Source of the DNA: Promethearchaeota archaeon
GTDB lineage: Archaea > Asgardarchaeota > Lokiarchaeia > Sigyniarchaeales > Promethearchaeaceae
Reading direction: 5' to 3'
Length of the DNA stretch: 32,000 bases
NCBI GenBank assembly: GCA_016933055.1
Contig: JAFGBS010000014.1
Span: forward strand, 60,001-92,000
Shown here: positions 6,384-24,834 of the stretch, piece after piece
How positions within the stretch are numbered: position 1 is the first letter of the stretch
How the letters are laid out: the number at the start of each line of letters is the position of its first letter
Notes under the pieces: model-generated
What the model saw: the letters and a program-made list of their open reading frames with translations, nothing else
Told to the model about the DNA's origin: nothing
Database searches by the model: none
Program-made: the position numbers and the translations under genes

Positions 6384-9197
6384 TCAACTGGGTTGATATT
6401 TTTTTGCTACACGTCGCCAATAATCTGCAAACATGGATGAAATGTGTGTGACCATTGGAGATAATTCCGACATAATTGCTGTAGTTTCATCCTCTTTAGG
6501 AGCAACTGGGGCTATTAAAATCTCTTCATTATCATGGTATGCAGCAAAAAAATCTTTTTGTGTATAGGAATATAATTCTATACCACTTTCATATGCTTGA
6601 TTGACTAAATTTATATCTTTCACAGTGTCCAAATTCGTGCAAATAATGAATTTTCTTCCCTTTTTATGGATCTCCATGATTAGTTTCCAATTTAAATCTT
6701 CAAATTTGGGTACTAAAAGAAAAACTGATGCTTTAGATCGTGAAATCATATCTTCTATATGTAGCTTTATCATTTCTTCTCCCGTAATGATCCAAGATTT
6801 CTCAGCATCGAACAATTTACTATCAACAAGGTTTTTCCAAATATCTTTCATCATTTCCCTTGGCTGATTGAGAGTATCAGCCGCTGAGTTTACGGTTTCT
6901 TCCAAACTGTTACGTATCTGTGTTAATTTTGCAAATAAATCCGTTTGAAAGTTCTGACCGATTTCTTGTACCGTATTTTCAATTTGTTTAGAAATTAGAT
7001 TCGATGATTCATTTATTTGCTGGAAAGAATTTTCCATTTTTGTGTGAATATTATTTACCGTTGAATGTATAGAATCTTCAACATATTGGATTTTGCTCTG
7101 TAATTCAGTTGAAGTGTCATCTACTGAACTGGAAAATGCATCTTTTATGTCTTGAGTATTAGAAATAAATGTGTTTTTCATGTCTTCAATTAAATGCACA
7201 ATTTCTTCTTTGGTCGAATTAATGGTTTCTGTATTTTGTTCAAAAAGAGCTGTGATGTTAGGATTTAATCCCATTTCAAAGTGGTTAATGGTGTCCTTCA
7301 TTGCTTCACTAGCCTTATCCAAAGAAAAACTGGCATTTTGAGCTAAAATTTCCAATATTTGTTTATTTTTCTTCATGTTTTCTTTAATTATTGTGTCTTG
7401 GTTTTCAATGGTTTGTTGGGCTAGTTCCCGAATTTTATTAATTCTTTCATCTACTGTTTGGAGTAGTTTGCTAGATTCTGTTTTTAAGCTTTCATCGATG
7501 AGTTTTGCAATCTCATCAATATCTAATAACAAAAGTTTGCTGTTCTGTTTTAAAATATCTAATGTAGAATTAAAAGAACCTTCTGCTTGACCCGAATTTT
7601 CAGTATATATATTTCCAATAGATTTTAATGCTGTTTCGTAGCCTTTTTGTAAAATAGAGCGAAATTCTGAACTGATATTATCGCTAGTATCCGAAATTTT
7701 TGTTTTTATGTCTTCATTGAATGTAGTATACAAGTTCGATTGCGTGGATGTGAATTCCACATTTTTCTGATTTAATTGGTCCAAATTTCTCTTTAATGAT
7801 CCTTGAAAATCAACTAACTTATCATTTATGTTGTTCTTGAAGGTGTTTTCATAAGCTTTTCCAGTTTCCTCCATCCGCTTTATGTATTCATTTTGAATTT
7901 TATTGAGTTCCGTAATTACCTCACTTTTAAATTTAGTGATTTCGTCGTGTATTGATTTTCCGATTACGGATTTTAACTGGGTGCTGCCCTCATTTATGGA
8001 ACTAATCGTATCATTGAGAATCTTTGAAAACATCTCACCCCAGTCTTTATGGGAATCCTGAATTGAAGATAATGAATCCTTAACGAGAGAATCAGTTTTA
8101 CTTAATAAATCTGATTGGACTTTAGTCATTTGGTTTGAAGTGGAACTCATCAAATCGGTTACTTGGGATCGAATTTTTTCCTTTAATTCATTTTGCTGAG
8201 CTCCTAAAGCGTTGATAAGTTGTTCTTCTGTATTTTGCACTTCTGCATAAGTATTGTCAAAATTCTTCTTGATTTCCCCACTCGAGTTAGAAAACATGGT
8301 ATTCGAGGTTTTTATAACACTATCTAATGTATTTTTTGAGATGTCTTCAGCATTTCGAATTGCTTGAGCAATAGTTTCCGCAGAATTTTCTACATTTTCT
8401 TTTAATACTTGTTGTGCCTCGATACTAATTTTCTCCATTTTTTCGTCCATTCGTTCCGCTTGCTCGGATACTAGACCTTTCGTCTTAGTAAGAGATTCAT
8501 CTATCACTAGTTGTTGGTTCACAAAGAACTTGGATAGATCATTTTGACGGAGATTAATTTTCTCTTTATAATTTTTGACCAGTGTTTGGGTTTGATCTGA
8601 ATAATACGATTGGGAATCAATCAATTTTTTATCAAAATCCTCAACAGAAGTATTAATTTTGGTATCAAATGCATCGATTTGGGTATTCTTGGTAGCATTT
8701 AATTGGTCTTCTACAGATTTCTTTAGTTCTTGCAGGATTTTATCCATCTCTTGAGCCGTATTGTTTATATCACCGCTTGCAGTCTGTTTTATTTCTTTAA
8801 TTTTTTCATTTAATGATGCGATGGAGGAGGTAATAGCAGATTGAGTATTTTCAGATATTGAACTACTCGCAATTTTTTGATTCTTAGTAATTTCGTGTAA
8901 TTTTTTCACAATTTCTGATTTTTCAGTTTCAAATTTATCCAAGTAGTTTAAATATTCCTTAATCGGAGTGAGAGGAATGTAGCGAGGAACAATACCAGGC
9001 AGTTTTTTGAGTAACTTCTTTTGCTCTAACTTCTTTAAATAATCATCTATTTTTTTAACGGGTTTCTTTATTTTGAGAGAAGTAACCATGGATAATGTTA
9101 TATATCCCCTTAGCAATGCCAGTTCATAAATTTGTATTTCCTCATCACTCAAATCTTTAAATAGGGTATTTAAATCAGTTTTCATAGATTCTACCAT
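6384..9197 (-). CDS. Giant TrmB-like protein: N-terminal wHTH, ~700-aa helical insert, C-terminal TrmB/PLD-like domain
   Basis: LSDEEIQIY...LKKLEQKKLLKKLPGIVPRYIPLTP resembles the TrmB wHTH; C-terminus (IEDMISRSKASVFL...HDNEEILIA...MFADYW) resembles the TrmB effector domain; middle shows 11-residue amphipathic periodicity. Confidence 0.65.
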   Translation of the reverse strand: MVESMKTDLNTLFKDLSDEEIQIYELALLRGYITLSMVTSLKIKKPVKKIDDYLKKLEQKKLLKKLPGIVPRYIPLTPIKEYLNYLDKFETEKSEIVKKLHEITKNQKIASSSISENTQSAITSSIASLNEKIKEIKQTASGDINNTAQEMDKILQELKKSVEDQLNATKNTQIDAFDTKINTSVEDFDKKLIDSQSYYSDQTQTLVKNYKEKINLRQNDLSKFFVNQQLVIDESLTKTKGLVSEQAERMDEKMEKISIEAQQVLKENVENSAETIAQAIRNAEDISKNTLDSVIKTSNTMFSNSSGEIKKNFDNTYAEVQNTEEQLINALGAQQNELKEKIRSQVTDLMSSTSNQMTKVQSDLLSKTDSLVKDSLSSIQDSHKDWGEMFSKILNDTISSINEGSTQLKSVIGKSIHDEITKFKSEVITELNKIQNEYIKRMEETGKAYENTFKNNINDKLVDFQGSLKRNLDQLNQKNVEFTSTQSNLYTTFNEDIKTKISDTSDNISSEFRSILQKGYETALKSIGNIYTENSGQAEGSFNSTLDILKQNSKLLLLDIDEIAKLIDESLKTESSKLLQTVDERINKIRELAQQTIENQDTIIKENMKKNKQILEILAQNASFSLDKASEAMKDTINHFEMGLNPNITALFEQNTETINSTKEEIVHLIEDMKNTFISNTQDIKDAFSSSVDDTSTELQSKIQYVEDSIHSTVNNIHTKMENSFQQINESSNLISKQIENTVQEIGQNFQTDLFAKLTQIRNSLEETVNSAADTLNQPREMMKDIWKNLVDSKLFDAEKSWIITGEEMIKLHIEDMISRSKASVFLLVPKFEDLNWKLIMEIHKKGRKFIICTNLDTVKDINLVNQAYESGIELYSYTQKDFFAAYHDNEEILIAPVAPKEDETTAIMSELSPMVTHISSMFADYWRRVAKKYQPS

Positions 9198-15200: not shown

Positions 15201-16583
15201 TTATTTTTTCTTTCTTCCTTTTTTCATCTTCTTTCCCAATGAACCTAATTTATTTATCGGATTATTTGTATCAAGATTTTTTTTTGCTTGAAAAAGAGAG
15301 CTAAGTTCATTTAATATTGTTAATCGTATATCAGAAGCTTGCGAAGAGGACTCAATTTCAGATTCCTCAGCAGAAGGTTTGGTATATATAATTGAAGGAA
15401 CTTTAATTTCCTCCATACTCTCCTTTCGAACATGTCTAGAAGATGAAGTCTCAGGTAAAGGTAATATTCCTGCTTCTAATTTTGTCTCTAAATCATTGAT
15501 TCGTTGATTTAATGCTGAAATTTGCTCACCTAACGAATTTGCCAGAGTAACAACAGCATTTAGGGTTGAATCTAAAATATCTCCCATCCCTTCTACCTTT
15601 CGGATTAGGGGATTATTTAAAGATTCTTTATCGCTAAGTACATCCTTAATAAATCGGGAAAACTTAGGTTCAGAAGTGAAGAAATTGTAAATACTTGTGC
15701 TGTAAATATCATATTCAAAATCATAATTTGATAAGTGATAATTGAGCTTATCGGCAACATATTCAGAATTGAGTTGAAAATCAGGATCCAAAAGAATATC
15801 TGGGTCTGCCTTGTGCATAAATGCTAAGATGTAAACATTTTCTCCTAATAGGCGAATTACCTCCAGTATTTCGATCAAATATTCAAAAGATTCATTGTAT
15901 CTTTCGGGATCTTGCATATCTAAAACATAAATAAGCAAATCTGTGCCAACGAAATAGGCTTCTGGTTTCGCTAGATAATCTTTTCGATATTCTTCTTGAC
16001 CTCCAAAATCCCATATGAATAAATCTAAATTGGTAGTAGAAATACGTTTTCGTTCTATTCTTTTTGTAGGTTTTAATTTTCCGAGTTCACTAATTCCTAG
16101 TTTCCCACCTAAGCCGGAGAGTATAGCTGTCTTACCCGCGTTGTCTAATCCGACACAAATTACTTTCGTATCCCGTTTTTTTGTATATGTTTTTCTTTTG
16201 GACCAAGATCTCTTTATCATACCGGCAACGGCTACGTGATTTCGAAATTTTTCCAAGTCTGGAATTCCTTCCTTCACTTGATCCTTTATTATCTTAACTT
16301 TTTTTTCATATCTTTTGGGATCAATTCCCTTTTCTATACTGGGTAAAAGATGTTCGATGGGATTGTTAGGATTAAGTTCTGCCAGCTCCTCAATAGAATT
16401 TACTCGAAAGATGTCATGAATTTGAGCCGCTTCAATTTTATCAATATTTTTAAGAGCTGTAATGGGTAATTCCAATATTTCTTTAATACTTGTAAACTGT
16501 TCTGGGGTATATTTCAACTCCGGTTTAATAAATCTTGATATAATATGAGAGATCAGCAGTGTCTCTCCCTTTCTTTTAGCCAT
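15201..16583 (-). CDS. Arf/Rag-like small GTPase with ~135-aa N-terminal domain and coiled-coil/polybasic C-terminal tail
   Basis: G1 GLDNAGKT; G2 KPT; G3 WDFGGQ; G4 HKAD; G5 STSIY; upstream AGGAG. Confidence 0.88.
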   Translation of the reverse strand: MAKRKGETLLISHIISRFIKPELKYTPEQFTSIKEILELPITALKNIDKIEAAQIHDIFRVNSIEELAELNPNNPIEHLLPSIEKGIDPKRYEKKVKIIKDQVKEGIPDLEKFRNHVAVAGMIKRSWSKRKTYTKKRDTKVICVGLDNAGKTAILSGLGGKLGISELGKLKPTKRIERKRISTTNLDLFIWDFGGQEEYRKDYLAKPEAYFVGTDLLIYVLDMQDPERYNESFEYLIEILEVIRLLGENVYILAFMHKADPDILLDPDFQLNSEYVADKLNYHLSNYDFEYDIYSTSIYNFFTSEPKFSRFIKDVLSDKESLNNPLIRKVEGMGDILDSTLNAVVTLANSLGEQISALNQRINDLETKLEAGILPLPETSSSRHVRKESMEEIKVPSIIYTKPSAEESEIESSSQASDIRLTILNELSSLFQAKKNLDTNNPINKLGSLGKKMKKGRKKK

Positions 16584-20553: not shown

Positions 20554-21606
20554 TTACCCTAGCCGTTTCTTAAGATTTTCAATCTCTAATTTTTGCTGTT
20601 TAGTCCGATTTTTCAAAATTTCAATCAAAGACTTCATTTCATTAATTTTAATTTGGTCTTGTCCTGGACCTTGACTAAGAATGGAAATTTTTTCTTGAAG
20701 AGTTTGATTTTCCCGTTTTAAGGCTTCAATTTGTTTTGTGAGATCATTTATATTTAAGTTGGGTTCACTGGAAGATGGTTCAGGACTCAATTTCCACAAC
20801 TTTTCTTTCAAAATATTTTTTGCCTTCTCCAATTCATCTATTTTTCTATCATCTTCGGTAATTTTCGGAACCACTGGTTCTTTTAATATATGTTTTTCTT
20901 CGATCTCCTCTCGTAATTTTTTATTTTGTGCGCGAAGTCTATCATTATTTCTTCGTAATTCTTCAATTAATTCTTGTAAGGGGATTTCTTTGTTTTGAGC
21001 AATTGTATTTTTTTGAGCAAGTTGTTCTTTTAGAGATTCAATTTGATTATCTTTGTCCATCAATAATCCTTGGAGCTGAGATTTTTCGTTATCGACTTCC
21101 GTAATATTTTTTTGGAGTTCATAAAACTCGTTGCTTTTTGTGTTTTTGAGTTTTGAGATTTCTCGTTCCAATAATTCAATGTTATCCCTCAATGAAGCAA
21201 TTTCTTTTTTATCTTTCATCGTGGAAACTTGGATGGTCTTTACAGGTTGTGCACTATCAGGTGTCTCCAAAGTATTCCCACTAATGTTGGTTTGTTCCAA
21301 TTGTTTGCTTAGTTTCTCAATTTGTGCTTTTTGCTTACGAATTTTAATTTGCATATCTTGCACTAAATCGTTCATTGAAGCCACTCCGTCGTATCTTTTC
21401 GTGGATGTTCCACCCAGTGCGGAAGTATTTTCGAGAATGACGATTTTGTTTTCTTTCTTTTGCAAATTTTCATTTAATTCCTGTAATTGACTTTTTAAAT
21501 TTTGGATATCCATTTCCAAGATTTTGATTTTACCATCCTTGGATTTTATTTGAATGTCTTTCGTTTTTAAAGCATTCTCTAATTCTGTGAGCTTATTTTC
21601 AGCCAT
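20554..21606 (-). CDS. Segmented coiled-coil protein with internal repeats
   Basis: K/E/Q/L-rich heptad segments separated by Pro/Ser/Gly linkers; three copies of a 26-aa motif. Confidence 0.8.
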   Translation of the reverse strand: MAENKLTELENALKTKDIQIKSKDGKIKILEMDIQNLKSQLQELNENLQKKENKIVILENTSALGGTSTKRYDGVASMNDLVQDMQIKIRKQKAQIEKLSKQLEQTNISGNTLETPDSAQPVKTIQVSTMKDKKEIASLRDNIELLEREISKLKNTKSNEFYELQKNITEVDNEKSQLQGLLMDKDNQIESLKEQLAQKNTIAQNKEIPLQELIEELRRNNDRLRAQNKKLREEIEEKHILKEPVVPKITEDDRKIDELEKAKNILKEKLWKLSPEPSSSEPNLNINDLTKQIEALKRENQTLQEKISILSQGPGQDQIKINEMKSLIEILKNRTKQQKLEIENLKKRLG

Positions 21607-21696
21607 AAAAAAACCCTTTTGACTTTTGCTATATCTGATTATACATTACTAACTCAAAAATTAATAGTTTTGTCATATATGGAGACCGTGATCAAA

Positions 21697-22704
21697 ATGG
21701 AAATTACCTTCCTTGGTACTTCAGCAGCGGTTCCAACCCGAGAAAGAAACCTTCCCTCAATAGCATTATTGTACAATGGAGATCAGATTCTATTTGATGC
21801 GGGGGAAGACGTTCAAAGACGATTTGAGGACCTTGGTTTGAAATTTAACGCTCCATTATCTATTTTTATATCCCATATGCATGGTGACCATGTAATTGGA
21901 CTACCAGGATTACTTTTTCGTTTCACCCTTATAGGTAGAACTACTGATGTTATTATCTTTGGACCTCCTGGTTTGTTTTCATACTTATACTTACATCGTC
22001 TCGTAACGGGATTACGCGCTCCATTTCTGCATGAAGTATATGAAATCTATTTAGAAGAAAAATTACTACGTAAATATGATTTTCAAGGGAGTTCTGATCA
22101 GAAACCAGAGGAGATCCCAATAAAGAAGAATACACTATATGATACTTCGGACTATTTTGTTGATGCTTTTCCCGTTTGCCATAGTATAATTACGTATGGA
22201 TTTAGATTCCAAGAGAAGCCACGACCGGGAAAATTTTATCCAATGATTGCAAAAAAATTAAAAATTCCCCGGGGTCATTTGTGGAAAGAGATGCAAATGG
22301 GGAAAACCATAAATTATAAAGGAAAATCCTACAATCCAGAAGAATTAGGTATAATTGGACCAAAACGTCAGGGTATTATTATTGCGTATTCAGCAGATAC
22401 GATGCTATGTGAGAAATTACATCCATTGGCGAATAATGCTGATGTTTTTATTTGTGAAGCCACATATGGAAATGAATTAAAAGATCTCGCGGAAGAAAAA
22501 AAGCATATGACAGCCCTTCAATGTGCAGAAATTGCGAGGGATTCGAATGTAGGTCAACTTATTTTGACGCATATTTCTTCACGATATACCGATGAGAATA
22601 TCCTACTAAAAGAGGCTCAATTTATATTCCCTAATACGGTTATTGCGCATGATATGCTACGGTTAACAACGACAAAGAACAGAATACTGAAATTATCTCA
22701 ATAA
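21697..22704 (+). CDS. rnz: Ribonuclease Z (tRNA 3' endonuclease)
   Basis: MEITFLGTSAAVPTRERN; HxHxDH (HMHGDH); exosite region; YSADT; CEATY; HMTA; THISSRY. The ATG at 21697 fits the family better than the TTG at 21619. Confidence 0.95.
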   Translation: MEITFLGTSAAVPTRERNLPSIALLYNGDQILFDAGEDVQRRFEDLGLKFNAPLSIFISHMHGDHVIGLPGLLFRFTLIGRTTDVIIFGPPGLFSYLYLHRLVTGLRAPFLHEVYEIYLEEKLLRKYDFQGSSDQKPEEIPIKKNTLYDTSDYFVDAFPVCHSIITYGFRFQEKPRPGKFYPMIAKKLKIPRGHLWKEMQMGKTINYKGKSYNPEELGIIGPKRQGIIIAYSADTMLCEKLHPLANNADVFICEATYGNELKDLAEEKKHMTALQCAEIARDSNVGQLILTHISSRYTDENILLKEAQFIFPNTVIAHDMLRLTTTKNRILKLSQ

Positions 22705-22817: not shown

Positions 22818-23039
22818 ATGGACCAAAAACTCGAACATATATATGAAGAATCAAAAACTATAGGCTCACTTAAAGAGTATATTGTTAAAGAAAAACGCAC
22901 TGTGAAGGATTTACTCCACGATTTAAACCTAGATGATAAATATTTTGCTATCTTGGTTGATGGAAAAAAAGCAAGATTGGATACAGAAATAGCTCAAGGT
23001 CAATCTATCGTTGTGCTCCCGAGAATTGCTGGTGGATAA
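22818..23039 (+). CDS. ThiS/MoaD/SAMP2-like ubiquitin-like protein (~73 aa)
   Basis: TVKDLLHDLNL; AILVDG; C-terminal VVLPRIAGG; ATG at 22818 preceded by AAGGGAG. Confidence 0.85.
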   Translation: MDQKLEHIYEESKTIGSLKEYIVKEKRTVKDLLHDLNLDDKYFAILVDGKKARLDTEIAQGQSIVVLPRIAGG

Positions 23040-23175
23040 AAACAATTACAGAATGACGCAGAATATGAAAATTGAAGTGATTACTAAAAGAAGACTCAAT
23101 TTTTAATAAATCTGTGCAGTGTAATAAAGATCGGAAACCTTTTTTTATATCCCATATTGTATTTCTTGAATTGGG

Positions 23176-24834
23176 TTGAACTTTGAAGAGACAGATGATC
23201 TGAGACCAAATGAGAAAATACTTGAACTCTTGGATGACTATTTTACTCAAGCTGGAGAAATTACTTCACATAAGAGACGAGAAACTATTTTTCGTGATAT
23301 GATCAGCCGTCTGATTGAGTTAATTAATGAACTAGCAATAGATGGTGATTCATATGAAGTGGGAGAATACCTCTATTCTGCTGCATACTACCTTGAAGAA
23401 TTTGACTTTAAAGAAGCCCAAGAAATATATGTCCAAGCAATCGGTTATTATGACGAATATCGTATAAAGGAACAAAAATTGGGAAAATTTGAAGAAGCTA
23501 GCTGGGTATCCTACAAAATTGCGGAAACATATCATGATAAATTAGGAGATCAGCAATCTGAAAAAAAGTATATTAGAAAATGCATTGAATATAAAGAAGC
23601 CCTATATGATATTCTGAACGGTTTTAGTAAACCCAGAAAGTTAGCTATTTTAGTATATAATTTAGGAGAATTAAATGCACGTATTAATAATTGGGAACGT
23701 GCAATAGAATATAATAACCTAACTCTTGATATTGCCAAGGAACAGAAATTTTACGACGTAATAGCGAATACTTATCTGAATTTAAGCGATATTCATTTGT
23801 TTATGGATAAAGAAGACAGATCTCGAGATTATATTGAGGAGGCACGTCAATTTTTCTTAAATGAGGAAAAACTCTGTACACAAACTAGACAATTTCGCCA
23901 ATTATCTCAGATTTATCAGATATTAAAAACTATTAATGCGGAAATAAATGATCAAAAAGAATTTGTAAGATTTTCAAGGAAAGAAGCGAAATCTTACATT
24001 GATTGTGCAAAACAAATCCACCGTGAAAAATTAAATTATTTTAAACTCGCAAATTTTTACAAAGGAGCTGCCGTTTGTTTTAAGGAGACTGATTATCTTG
24101 AATGTGCTACTTGTTATTATCTGGCAGCACGTATTTTTCAACAAATTGGGGAATTAACGCAAGCCAATTCCTGCTATAGTGAAGCAGCGGAATTATTTGA
24201 AGAGGTCGGACTTTATAAAAAATCAATTGAATTATATTGCTTAGCTGGAGATGCTAGCTTAAATAATAATGATTTGGAGTTTGCGATTGAAAAATTCATG
24301 AATGCCTTTGACCTCCTTTCTCGAGAGAACATTAATTTCCAAAAAAATGAACTAGCAAGAAAAATCGAAACAAATCTGATGTTACTAAGTAATATTAATG
24401 CGCAAGAAAATCGATTTTTTATCGCAGGTACCTTACTTCTTGAAACCTTGTTCTATTATAAAAAATCAGGATTGCATAAATCACAGAAAGAAATAAATCA
24501 TCTTTTCAAAAAAATAAAAAAATACTATTATTTGGAATATAAGGAACATGAGGCCTCGAGTAAATCGTCGTGGGTTGCTTATATGCTTGCTTTAACAGCA
24601 ATTGCTCATATCAGCTTAGAACAACTAGAAAAAGCCAAGTCCCTTATTTCACGGTTAAAAGACCTAGAAAATAACTCACAGACCATAAAAGCCTATAGAG
24701 AAATTACAGAATTGATTCTTCAAGCAAAAAATAATGAAATTAAGTTTACATTAGGGCATTTAGATAAGAAAAGCAAAAAAATATATTCCGGATCCGAAGA
24801 GATCAAACTTTTTAATAATTTATTGTTTTACTAA
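23176..24834 (+). CDS. TPR-like helical protein with two alpha-SNAP (NSF attachment protein)-like segments
   Basis: aa ~62-140 and ~291-345 match the alpha-SNAP repeat pattern (GKF..A......IAE.Y...L.D; A.....A...FK..D..E...C...A..I....G); TTG start. Confidence 0.6.
   Translation: MNFEETDDLRPNEKILELLDDYFTQAGEITSHKRRETIFRDMISRLIELINELAIDGDSYEVGEYLYSAAYYLEEFDFKEAQEIYVQAIGYYDEYRIKEQKLGKFEEASWVSYKIAETYHDKLGDQQSEKKYIRKCIEYKEALYDILNGFSKPRKLAILVYNLGELNARINNWERAIEYNNLTLDIAKEQKFYDVIANTYLNLSDIHLFMDKEDRSRDYIEEARQFFLNEEKLCTQTRQFRQLSQIYQILKTINAEINDQKEFVRFSRKEAKSYIDCAKQIHREKLNYFKLANFYKGAAVCFKETDYLECATCYYLAARIFQQIGELTQANSCYSEAAELFEEVGLYKKSIELYCLAGDASLNNNDLEFAIEKFMNAFDLLSRENINFQKNELARKIETNLMLLSNINAQENRFFIAGTLLLETLFYYKKSGLHKSQKEINHLFKKIKKYYYLEYKEHEASSKSSWVAYMLALTAIAHISLEQLEKAKSLISRLKDLENNSQTIKAYREITELILQAKNNEIKFTLGHLDKKSKKIYSGSEEIKLFNNLLFY

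Follow-up and report, generated by a model that had tools for sequence, protein, structure and literature searches.

The window analysed here is a stretch of 32,000 nucleotides (nt) from a Promethearchaeota archaeon (contig JAFGBS010000014.1, positions 60,001 to 92,000), the genome of which comprises 3.76 Mb, is 91% complete and has ~33% G+C. At positions 23176 to 24834 of its + strand lies a gene that a preliminary description, made from the letters alone, had presented as encoding a tandem α-SNAP-like protein, a candidate archaeal relative of the SNARE-disassembly adaptor. The list of open reading frames (ORFs) and the translation show a genuine ORF, as had been stated: it begins with TTG, includes its stop codon and encodes 552 amino acids (aa). 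Its homologues have the same first residue and the same length (552 aa), which supports the TTG start. The product is a soluble all-α protein, as judged from its translation, its homologues and an AlphaFold model; the 19-residue hydropathy peak is 1.24, therefore the protein has no membrane segment. A T/A-rich TATA-like box (23140..23150, + strand), which can be read in the DNA ~30 nt 5' of the start codon, suggests that the gene has its own promoter and a very short leader or none, a reading that fits the location of an upstream gene, encoding a ubiquitin-like protein (Ubl), on the opposite strand in most relatives. Members of the family are currently annotated as “hypothetical”, “TPR” (tetratricopeptide repeat) or “DUF2225”; the last label, carried by one homologue, has no Pfam backing at E ≤ 0.1. 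NCBIfam contains no family for the 552-aa protein, and a PDB search with its single sequence returned nothing significant.

The AlphaFold2 model obtained with the family alignment is an all-helical solenoid of 25 helices (predicted local distance difference test, pLDDT, 90.1), in which an N-lobe runs into a C-lobe without a break. Repeat models above their cut-offs, together with this solenoid of antiparallel helical hairpins, place the protein in the TPR clan. The N-lobe (aa 1-257; 23176..23946, + strand) consists of two N-terminal helices followed by nine TPR_12/TPR_8-type helices, the repeats spanning aa ~58-257. Pfam assigns to it TPR_12 (42.2 bits at aa 160-226; cut-off 30.1) and TPR_8 (27.5 bits; cut-off 25.7), its residues 135-260 match consensus TPR, Pins/LGN and TONSOKU in a PDB profile search, and its nearest language-model clusters are generic TPR_12/TTC29 ones. 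The top matches over the whole length are likewise LGN/Pins and consensus TPR. The lobe is acidic (isoelectric point 4.5-6.1) in all 22 relatives compared. The N-lobe is thus composed of ordinary TPR_12/LGN-type repeats. By hhalign it aligns to the SNAP sheet at 95.7% and to the C-lobe of the same protein at 96.3%; it matches the C-lobe equally well, has no bundle, and has generic TPR_12 as its nearest features. The proposal of a tandem, that is duplicated, SNAP solenoid was therefore rejected, as only the rear half is SNAP-like.

The C-lobe is built from a sheet (aa 258-458; 23947..24549, + strand) of nine antiparallel helices with SNAP-type repeats, as recognised by Pfam, hhalign and the models, and from a bundle (aa 459-552; 24550..24831, + strand) of five helices that closes the lobe and is equivalent to the SNAP bundle in fold only. 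Folded alone with 22 relatives, the C-lobe yields 14 helices with a pLDDT of 93.8 and a predicted template-modelling score (pTM) of 0.87. The predicted model has the elements of the SNAP fold, a nine-helix twisted sheet followed by a five-helix C-terminal bundle over ~290 aa. Both the helix count (14) and the length of the lobe (295 aa) equal those of SNAP (Sec17 topology, PDB 1QQE). Its best solved matches are γ-SNAP, Sec17 and α-SNAP, from end to end, and the structural alignments extend to the last residue or nearly so (model residues 7-294 on γ-SNAP 1-273, 11-295 on Sec17 1-282). In Foldseek, the best 18 matches of the C-lobe are all SNAP-family chains (template-modelling score, TM, 0.45-0.57 over ~300 columns), whereas RapI and LGN reach TM 0.3-0.39 only. 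When the matches of the whole model are re-ranked with VIA-align, γ-SNAP, Sec17 and the SNAP-derived HAP40 lead, with LGN tied within one Z unit. SNAPs rank first for the C-lobe, taken alone and at full length, by VIA-align, by Foldseek and by language-model features; the N-lobe differs in this respect.

Sequence comparison points to the same family. Pfam PF14938 (SNAP) scores 32.3 bits on the whole protein (E 9e-8) and 34.2 bits on the C-lobe alone, above the cut-off of 25, and it ranks first among the Pfam families matching this lobe in 21 of 22 relatives, with identities down to 19%. Against seven bona fide SNAP sequences, which served as comparators (e.g. P0144, PF14938 280 bits, model positions 2-280 of 282), the C-lobe gives hhalign probabilities of 97.5-97.9% (E 4e-13 to 9e-12); the best alignment, that of its sheet to the SNAP alignment, reaches 97.9% (E 4e-13) over 118 columns. 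In a search of 1.8 billion proteins, the family profile reaches eukaryotic α-SNAPs at E 1e-9 to 1e-14. Language-model features place, directly after the family's own clusters, a eukaryotic γ-SNAP (0.93, 186/256 features) and PF14938-bearing clusters of Thorarchaeota next to the C-lobe, with plant and chordate SNAPs (0.88-0.90) among the further neighbours, which also include α-SNAP. The three segments that had been quoted as SNAP-like are all present in the translation (aa 103-125, 291-342 and ~477-521) and fared differently. The second (aa 291-342) has 14-16 gapless identities in 52 positions to the seven SNAPs, a number that only 0-2 of 500 shuffles reach. The first shows 6-9 identities in 23 positions; against five of the seven SNAPs this is no more than chance gives (81-337 of 500 shuffles), and the best position varies among SNAPs. 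The resemblance claimed for the C-terminal segment finds no support in sequence (hhalign 0.5%). The broader claim of an archaeal SNAP relative holds in so far as the rear half is statistically SNAP-like and has SNAP/Sec17 as its closest solved fold, but the likeness is at the level of the repeats.

The part of SNAP to which the sequence likeness extends is limited. The PF14938 match covers model positions 55-187 only, and C-lobe residues 176-295 (the last six helices) show no similarity to the bundle region of SNAP (188-298) by hhalign (0.5%). A hydrophobic membrane-insertion loop after helix 1 is established for α-SNAP and Sec17, and its FF/FFF residues are visible in the alignment of SNAPs. 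This loop is absent from the C-lobe, where helices 1 and 2 are joined by three residues (aa 285-287) that are neither conserved nor hydrophobic; the N-terminus of the lobe is, moreover, not free, being fused to the N-lobe. The C-terminus of SNAP is acidic and carries a penultimate Leu that stimulates NSF. The 552-aa protein ends instead in a conserved motif, recognised in the family alignments, that reads S-x-E-E-I-K-L-F-N-N-L-L-F-Y (aa 538-552; 24787..24831, + strand), the core of which (S-x-E-I/L-K/Q-x-L) is retained in distant relatives; the chain ends with LLFY in close relatives and 3-15 residues past the motif in distant ones. This motif differs from the SNAP arrangement and may provide an analogous contact. 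We conclude that the relation to SNAP holds at the levels of repeat sequence and overall fold only.

A word-indexed search found 15 relatives of equal length and 37-82% identity, all from Loki-type Asgard metagenomes, and an exhaustive profile search added ~30-50 more diverged full-length representatives with identities down to ~19%, those named being “Promethearchaeota”, “Lokiarchaeota CR_4” and one “Helarchaeota”. When the family profile was run against 251 Asgard genomes, exactly one locus was found in each of the 59 genomes sampled from two families of the order to which our archaeon belongs, while none of the 191 Asgard genomes outside these two families, non-Loki lineages among them, gave a match at E ≤ 1e-20. 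Helarchaeota have weaker relatives of the 552-aa protein. The closed genome of Ca. Harpocratesius repetitus is a carrier, its homologue being 635 aa long. The gene belongs, in single copy, to the core of one Lokiarchaeial order, and the family is Asgard-only.

Two genes precede the TPR gene on the same strand: one for RNase Z, a tRNA 3' processing enzyme (21619..22704, +; NCBIfam NF000801 301 bits, cut-off 252), and one for a 73-aa ThiS/MoaD/SAMP2-like Ubl that ends in Gly-Gly (22818..23039, +; Pfam ThiS 34.3 bits, NCBIfam MoaD/SAMP2 weak). The block order RNase Z - Ubl - TPR gene is conserved and is repeated in four related loci (L008, L011, L012 and L013). The Ubl copies (L008:5409-5627, L009:72-293, L011:5580-5789 (-), L012:1203-1424 (-) and L013:5039-5248 (-)) are 69-73 aa long across the loci, with an invariant ILPKIAGG end; some have one extra residue past Gly-Gly, which implies that the Ubl is processed. 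Linkage was assessed from the positions of the Ubl and TPR profiles in 60 genomes with the TPR gene. The two genes lie within ~520 nt of each other on the same contig in 52 genomes, the Ubl is clearly elsewhere in four (three of one genus), and four are undecidable owing to contig ends. In 50 of the 52 linked genomes the two genes are head-to-head, co-directional pairs being confined to the genus of our archaeon, and this layout rules out a Ubl-TPR operon as a general rule. As the genomes are kin with much common gene order, the linkage is a lead and not functional proof, and a role of the Ubl in tRNA metabolism, together with RNase Z, is an equal possibility. Co-folding the TPR protein with the Ubl gave a score of 0.00, which is neither support nor evidence against.

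Coiled-coil proteins are also encoded in this neighbourhood. A 350-aa one (20554-21606, -) adjoins RNase Z, 1.6 kb upstream of the TPR gene; it is conserved but evolves fast (L008, 33% identity across 240 residues; L011, weak similarity), has a conserved C-terminal stretch ending in LKRRL, and gives only generic SMC/Rad50-coil matches. Another, of 930-937 aa, has a winged helix-turn-helix-like head, a coiled-coil/helical middle of ~700 aa and a conserved C-terminal domain, with 32% full-length identity between genomes. Its gene lies directly 3' of the TPR gene in L008 (8028-10820) and L009 (2098-4896); the homologue in the window (6384-9197, -; 937 aa) is 14 kb from the TPR gene, beside a 332-aa ORF. 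At the position of this ORF, relatives have a TFIIB paralogue beside the ~930-aa coiled-coil gene, and in other relatives a TFIIB paralogue follows the TPR gene. An Arf/Rag-like small GTPase that carries an additional N-terminal domain is encoded 2-7 kb from the TPR gene both in the window (15201-16583, -) and in L011 (9172-10398, -), the locus of a relative with 21% identity, a proximity that probably reflects order-wide synteny.

Three of the other ORFs of this genome that match PF14938 deserve mention. One (L005:1417-2793, +; G000:C36, ~110.9-111.5 kb) encodes 459 aa and has Pfam SNAP as its sole significant family (29.9 bits). Its match covers model positions 87-274 of 282, the only one to reach the SNAP C-terminal region, accompanied by a sub-threshold TRAPPC13_C match (23 bits); this protein may be more SNAP-like than the 552-aa protein. 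An ORF of 381 aa on the same contig as the TPR gene, ~30 kb past the end of the window (L001:748-1890, -; G000:C22:122032-122385), has SNAP (33.9 bits) as its best Pfam family, above TPR_12 (26 bits), and is possibly a second member of the group with SNAP-type repeats. The third (L004:52-2214, +; G000:C35) combines SIR2_2 with a long TPR_12 array in 721 aa, a defence-type NADase architecture.

The endomembrane system of eukaryotes has SNAREs, NSF and SNAP among its hallmarks, and both kinds of partner that the preliminary description had named, SNARE-like proteins and NSF/Cdc48-like ATPases, were searched for. Neither PF05739 (SNARE) nor PF00957 (synaptobrevin) has a match in the 91%-complete genome of our archaeon, the SNARE model being of unproven sensitivity as it matched no control genome. 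The genome of our archaeon also has three Cdc48-type ORFs that carry a CDC48_N domain. These are uninformative because all archaeal controls have them likewise; Pfam cannot separate NSF from Cdc48, and in none of the loci read is the TPR gene linked to one for Cdc48. Heimdallarchaeota are reported to have SNARE-like proteins (10.1101/810531). According to a 2026 preprint, Heimdall SNARE complexes resist mouse NSF, and an archaeal Cdc48-like ATPase was proposed as the disassembly motor; the recycling of these SNAREs, adaptor included, was left open (10.64898/2026.10.19.760048). No report of an Asgard relative of SNAP, Sec17 or PF14938 was found in the literature searched.

The interpretation towards which we lean is that the gene, as a single-copy core gene, encodes a soluble two-lobed helical scaffold in which a TPR_12 lobe is fused to a SNAP-shaped lobe. 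From its fold class, the protein is most likely devoid of enzymatic activity and acts as a holder of other proteins. The concave faces of both lobes would receive an extended peptide or a helical partner, and the conserved C-terminal motif could form a second contact. The role in SNARE disassembly that had been put forward has no support: without a SNARE/synaptobrevin match in the genome and without bundle similarity, and with a three-residue loop and a different C-terminus, the protein is read here as a SNAP-shaped scaffold and not as a working SNARE-disassembly adaptor. Several observations weigh against the scaffold reading as well. SNAPs lead other helical repeats by a modest 1.4-3 Z units, at root-mean-square deviations of 6-7 Å, and a predicted-structure search of the ESM Atlas with the C-lobe, which was not exhaustive, returned generic TPR_12 proteins only (TM 0.36-0.50) and no SNAP cluster. 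Six further TPR ORFs of this genome also score above the cut-off of PF14938, up to the 64.7 bits of the SIR2-TPR protein, which exceeds the score of the 552-aa protein and makes that ORF a useful negative control for the Pfam SNAP model. The alignments to SNAP fall into at least three registers, with offsets of ~+15 (hhalign), +21 to +27 (PDB profile) and +43 to +48 (Pfam and best gapless), which differ by one helix or one repeat, and the alternative hhalign registers all score above 89%; together with the mutual match of the N- and C-lobes (96%), this argues for repeat-level similarity and not for positional homology. Finally, the mode of binding is drawn from the fold class, and the partner is putative.

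Much of this evidence would also fit a plain TPR protein, that is, a generic TPR scaffold or a chaperone-type cofactor, in which the likeness to SNAP is a by-product of TPR_12-type repeats and a capping bundle, with no SNAP-specific evolutionary or mechanistic link. Generic TPR similarity had been named from the outset as the main alternative, and generic profiles indeed equal or beat SNAP when the entire protein is considered: the score is 42 bits for TPR_12 against 32 bits for SNAP, the PDB profile search ranks consensus TPR, Pins and TONSOKU above α-SNAP, and among the 1.8 billion proteins true SNAPs (54-71 bits) are surpassed by long TPR_12 proteins (up to 92 bits). Matches of PF14938 in bacteria (B. 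subtilis, D. radiodurans) and a methanogen (M. acetivorans) without SNAREs, in addition to those in the six other ORFs, point in the same direction, as do the several registers, a match between the two lobes (96.3%) as good as that of either to SNAP, the generic TPR_12 proteins at TM 0.46-0.50 in the Atlas fold search and a bundle devoid of sequence likeness. The model, however, has the SNAP sheet-plus-bundle fold, with 14 helices and 295 aa as in SNAP (the Sec17 topology being general knowledge); VIA-align, Foldseek and language-model features all rank SNAPs first for the C-lobe and not for the N-lobe; and in all but one of the 22 diverged relatives PF14938 ranks first among families. Since the SNAP margins are modest, we regard a plain TPR protein as possible, though unlikely. 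A third explanation goes further than the scaffold reading and takes the C-lobe for a true SNAP homologue, a proto-SNAP that would lie along a helical bundle or coiled coil and pass this substrate on to an AAA+ ATPase of the Cdc48 type, in the manner of SNAP with SNAREs and NSF. In its favour, no known fold or family is closer to the C-lobe than SNAP, the genome has three Cdc48-like genes, the Cdc48-like motor proposed in the preprint leaves the adaptor open (10.64898/2026.10.19.760048), and long coiled-coil proteins are encoded nearby (350 aa upstream; ~930 aa downstream in L008 and L009). Against this, no SNARE-like motif was matched in the genome, the family was not found in the 191 Asgard genomes outside the two families while SNARE-like proteins were reported from Heimdallarchaeota (10.1101/810531), the membrane loop, the penultimate-Leu C-terminus and bundle sequence likeness are missing, and Cdc48 is universal in archaea with none linked to the gene in the loci read. 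Fusion behind another lobe would, in addition, make side-by-side packing around a bundle, of the kind shown by free SNAPs, impossible. This explanation is accordingly doubtful in our view. Its most far-reaching form, in which a truly SNAP-homologous C-lobe adapts a Cdc48-type ATPase to bundles or coiled coils as a pre-SNARE stage of the NSF-SNAP machine, with the Ubl possibly in the same pathway, seems to us slightly more doubtful still.

The two-lobed scaffold that we favour gives a hitherto uncharacterised family a defined architecture. Its conserved, single-copy SNAP-shaped lobe is a concrete, testable candidate, and its carriers include Ca. Harpocratesius repetitus. Binding to Cdc48 and to helical substrates, if it occurs, would make the protein relevant to the origin of the fusion machinery; if it does not occur, the SNAP shape would be an older general-purpose TPR scaffold that was recruited by eukaryotes.

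Among known systems, the SNAP family (α-, β- and γ-SNAP and Sec17; PF14938; PDB 2IFU, 1QQE, 3J96 and 9CRU) resembles the C-lobe in fold and in the sequence of the sheet. The archaeal lobe differs from it in being fused behind a 257-aa TPR lobe, in a sequence likeness that is confined to the sheet and ambiguous in register, in lacking both the N-terminal hydrophobic loop and the acidic end with its penultimate Leu, and in its restriction to one archaeal order. The setting differs as well, with no SNARE match in the genome and with Cdc48-type ORFs but none recognised as NSF. HAP40 (F8A; PDB 6X9O and 9PMW), a partner of huntingtin with a SNAP-like TPR domain, aligns in its sheet part only; it is metazoan and embedded in huntingtin, and no partner of that kind is present here. 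LGN/Pins (GPSM2), TPR_12 scaffolds and the Rap/RRNPP proteins reach whole-length TM values of only 0.2-0.3 to the 552-aa protein, which has neither the GoLoco motifs of LGN nor the helix-turn-helix or phosphatase-type N-domain of Rap/RRNPP. In its geometry, the C-lobe is nearer to SNAP (TM 0.55) than to LGN and Rap (0.3-0.39).

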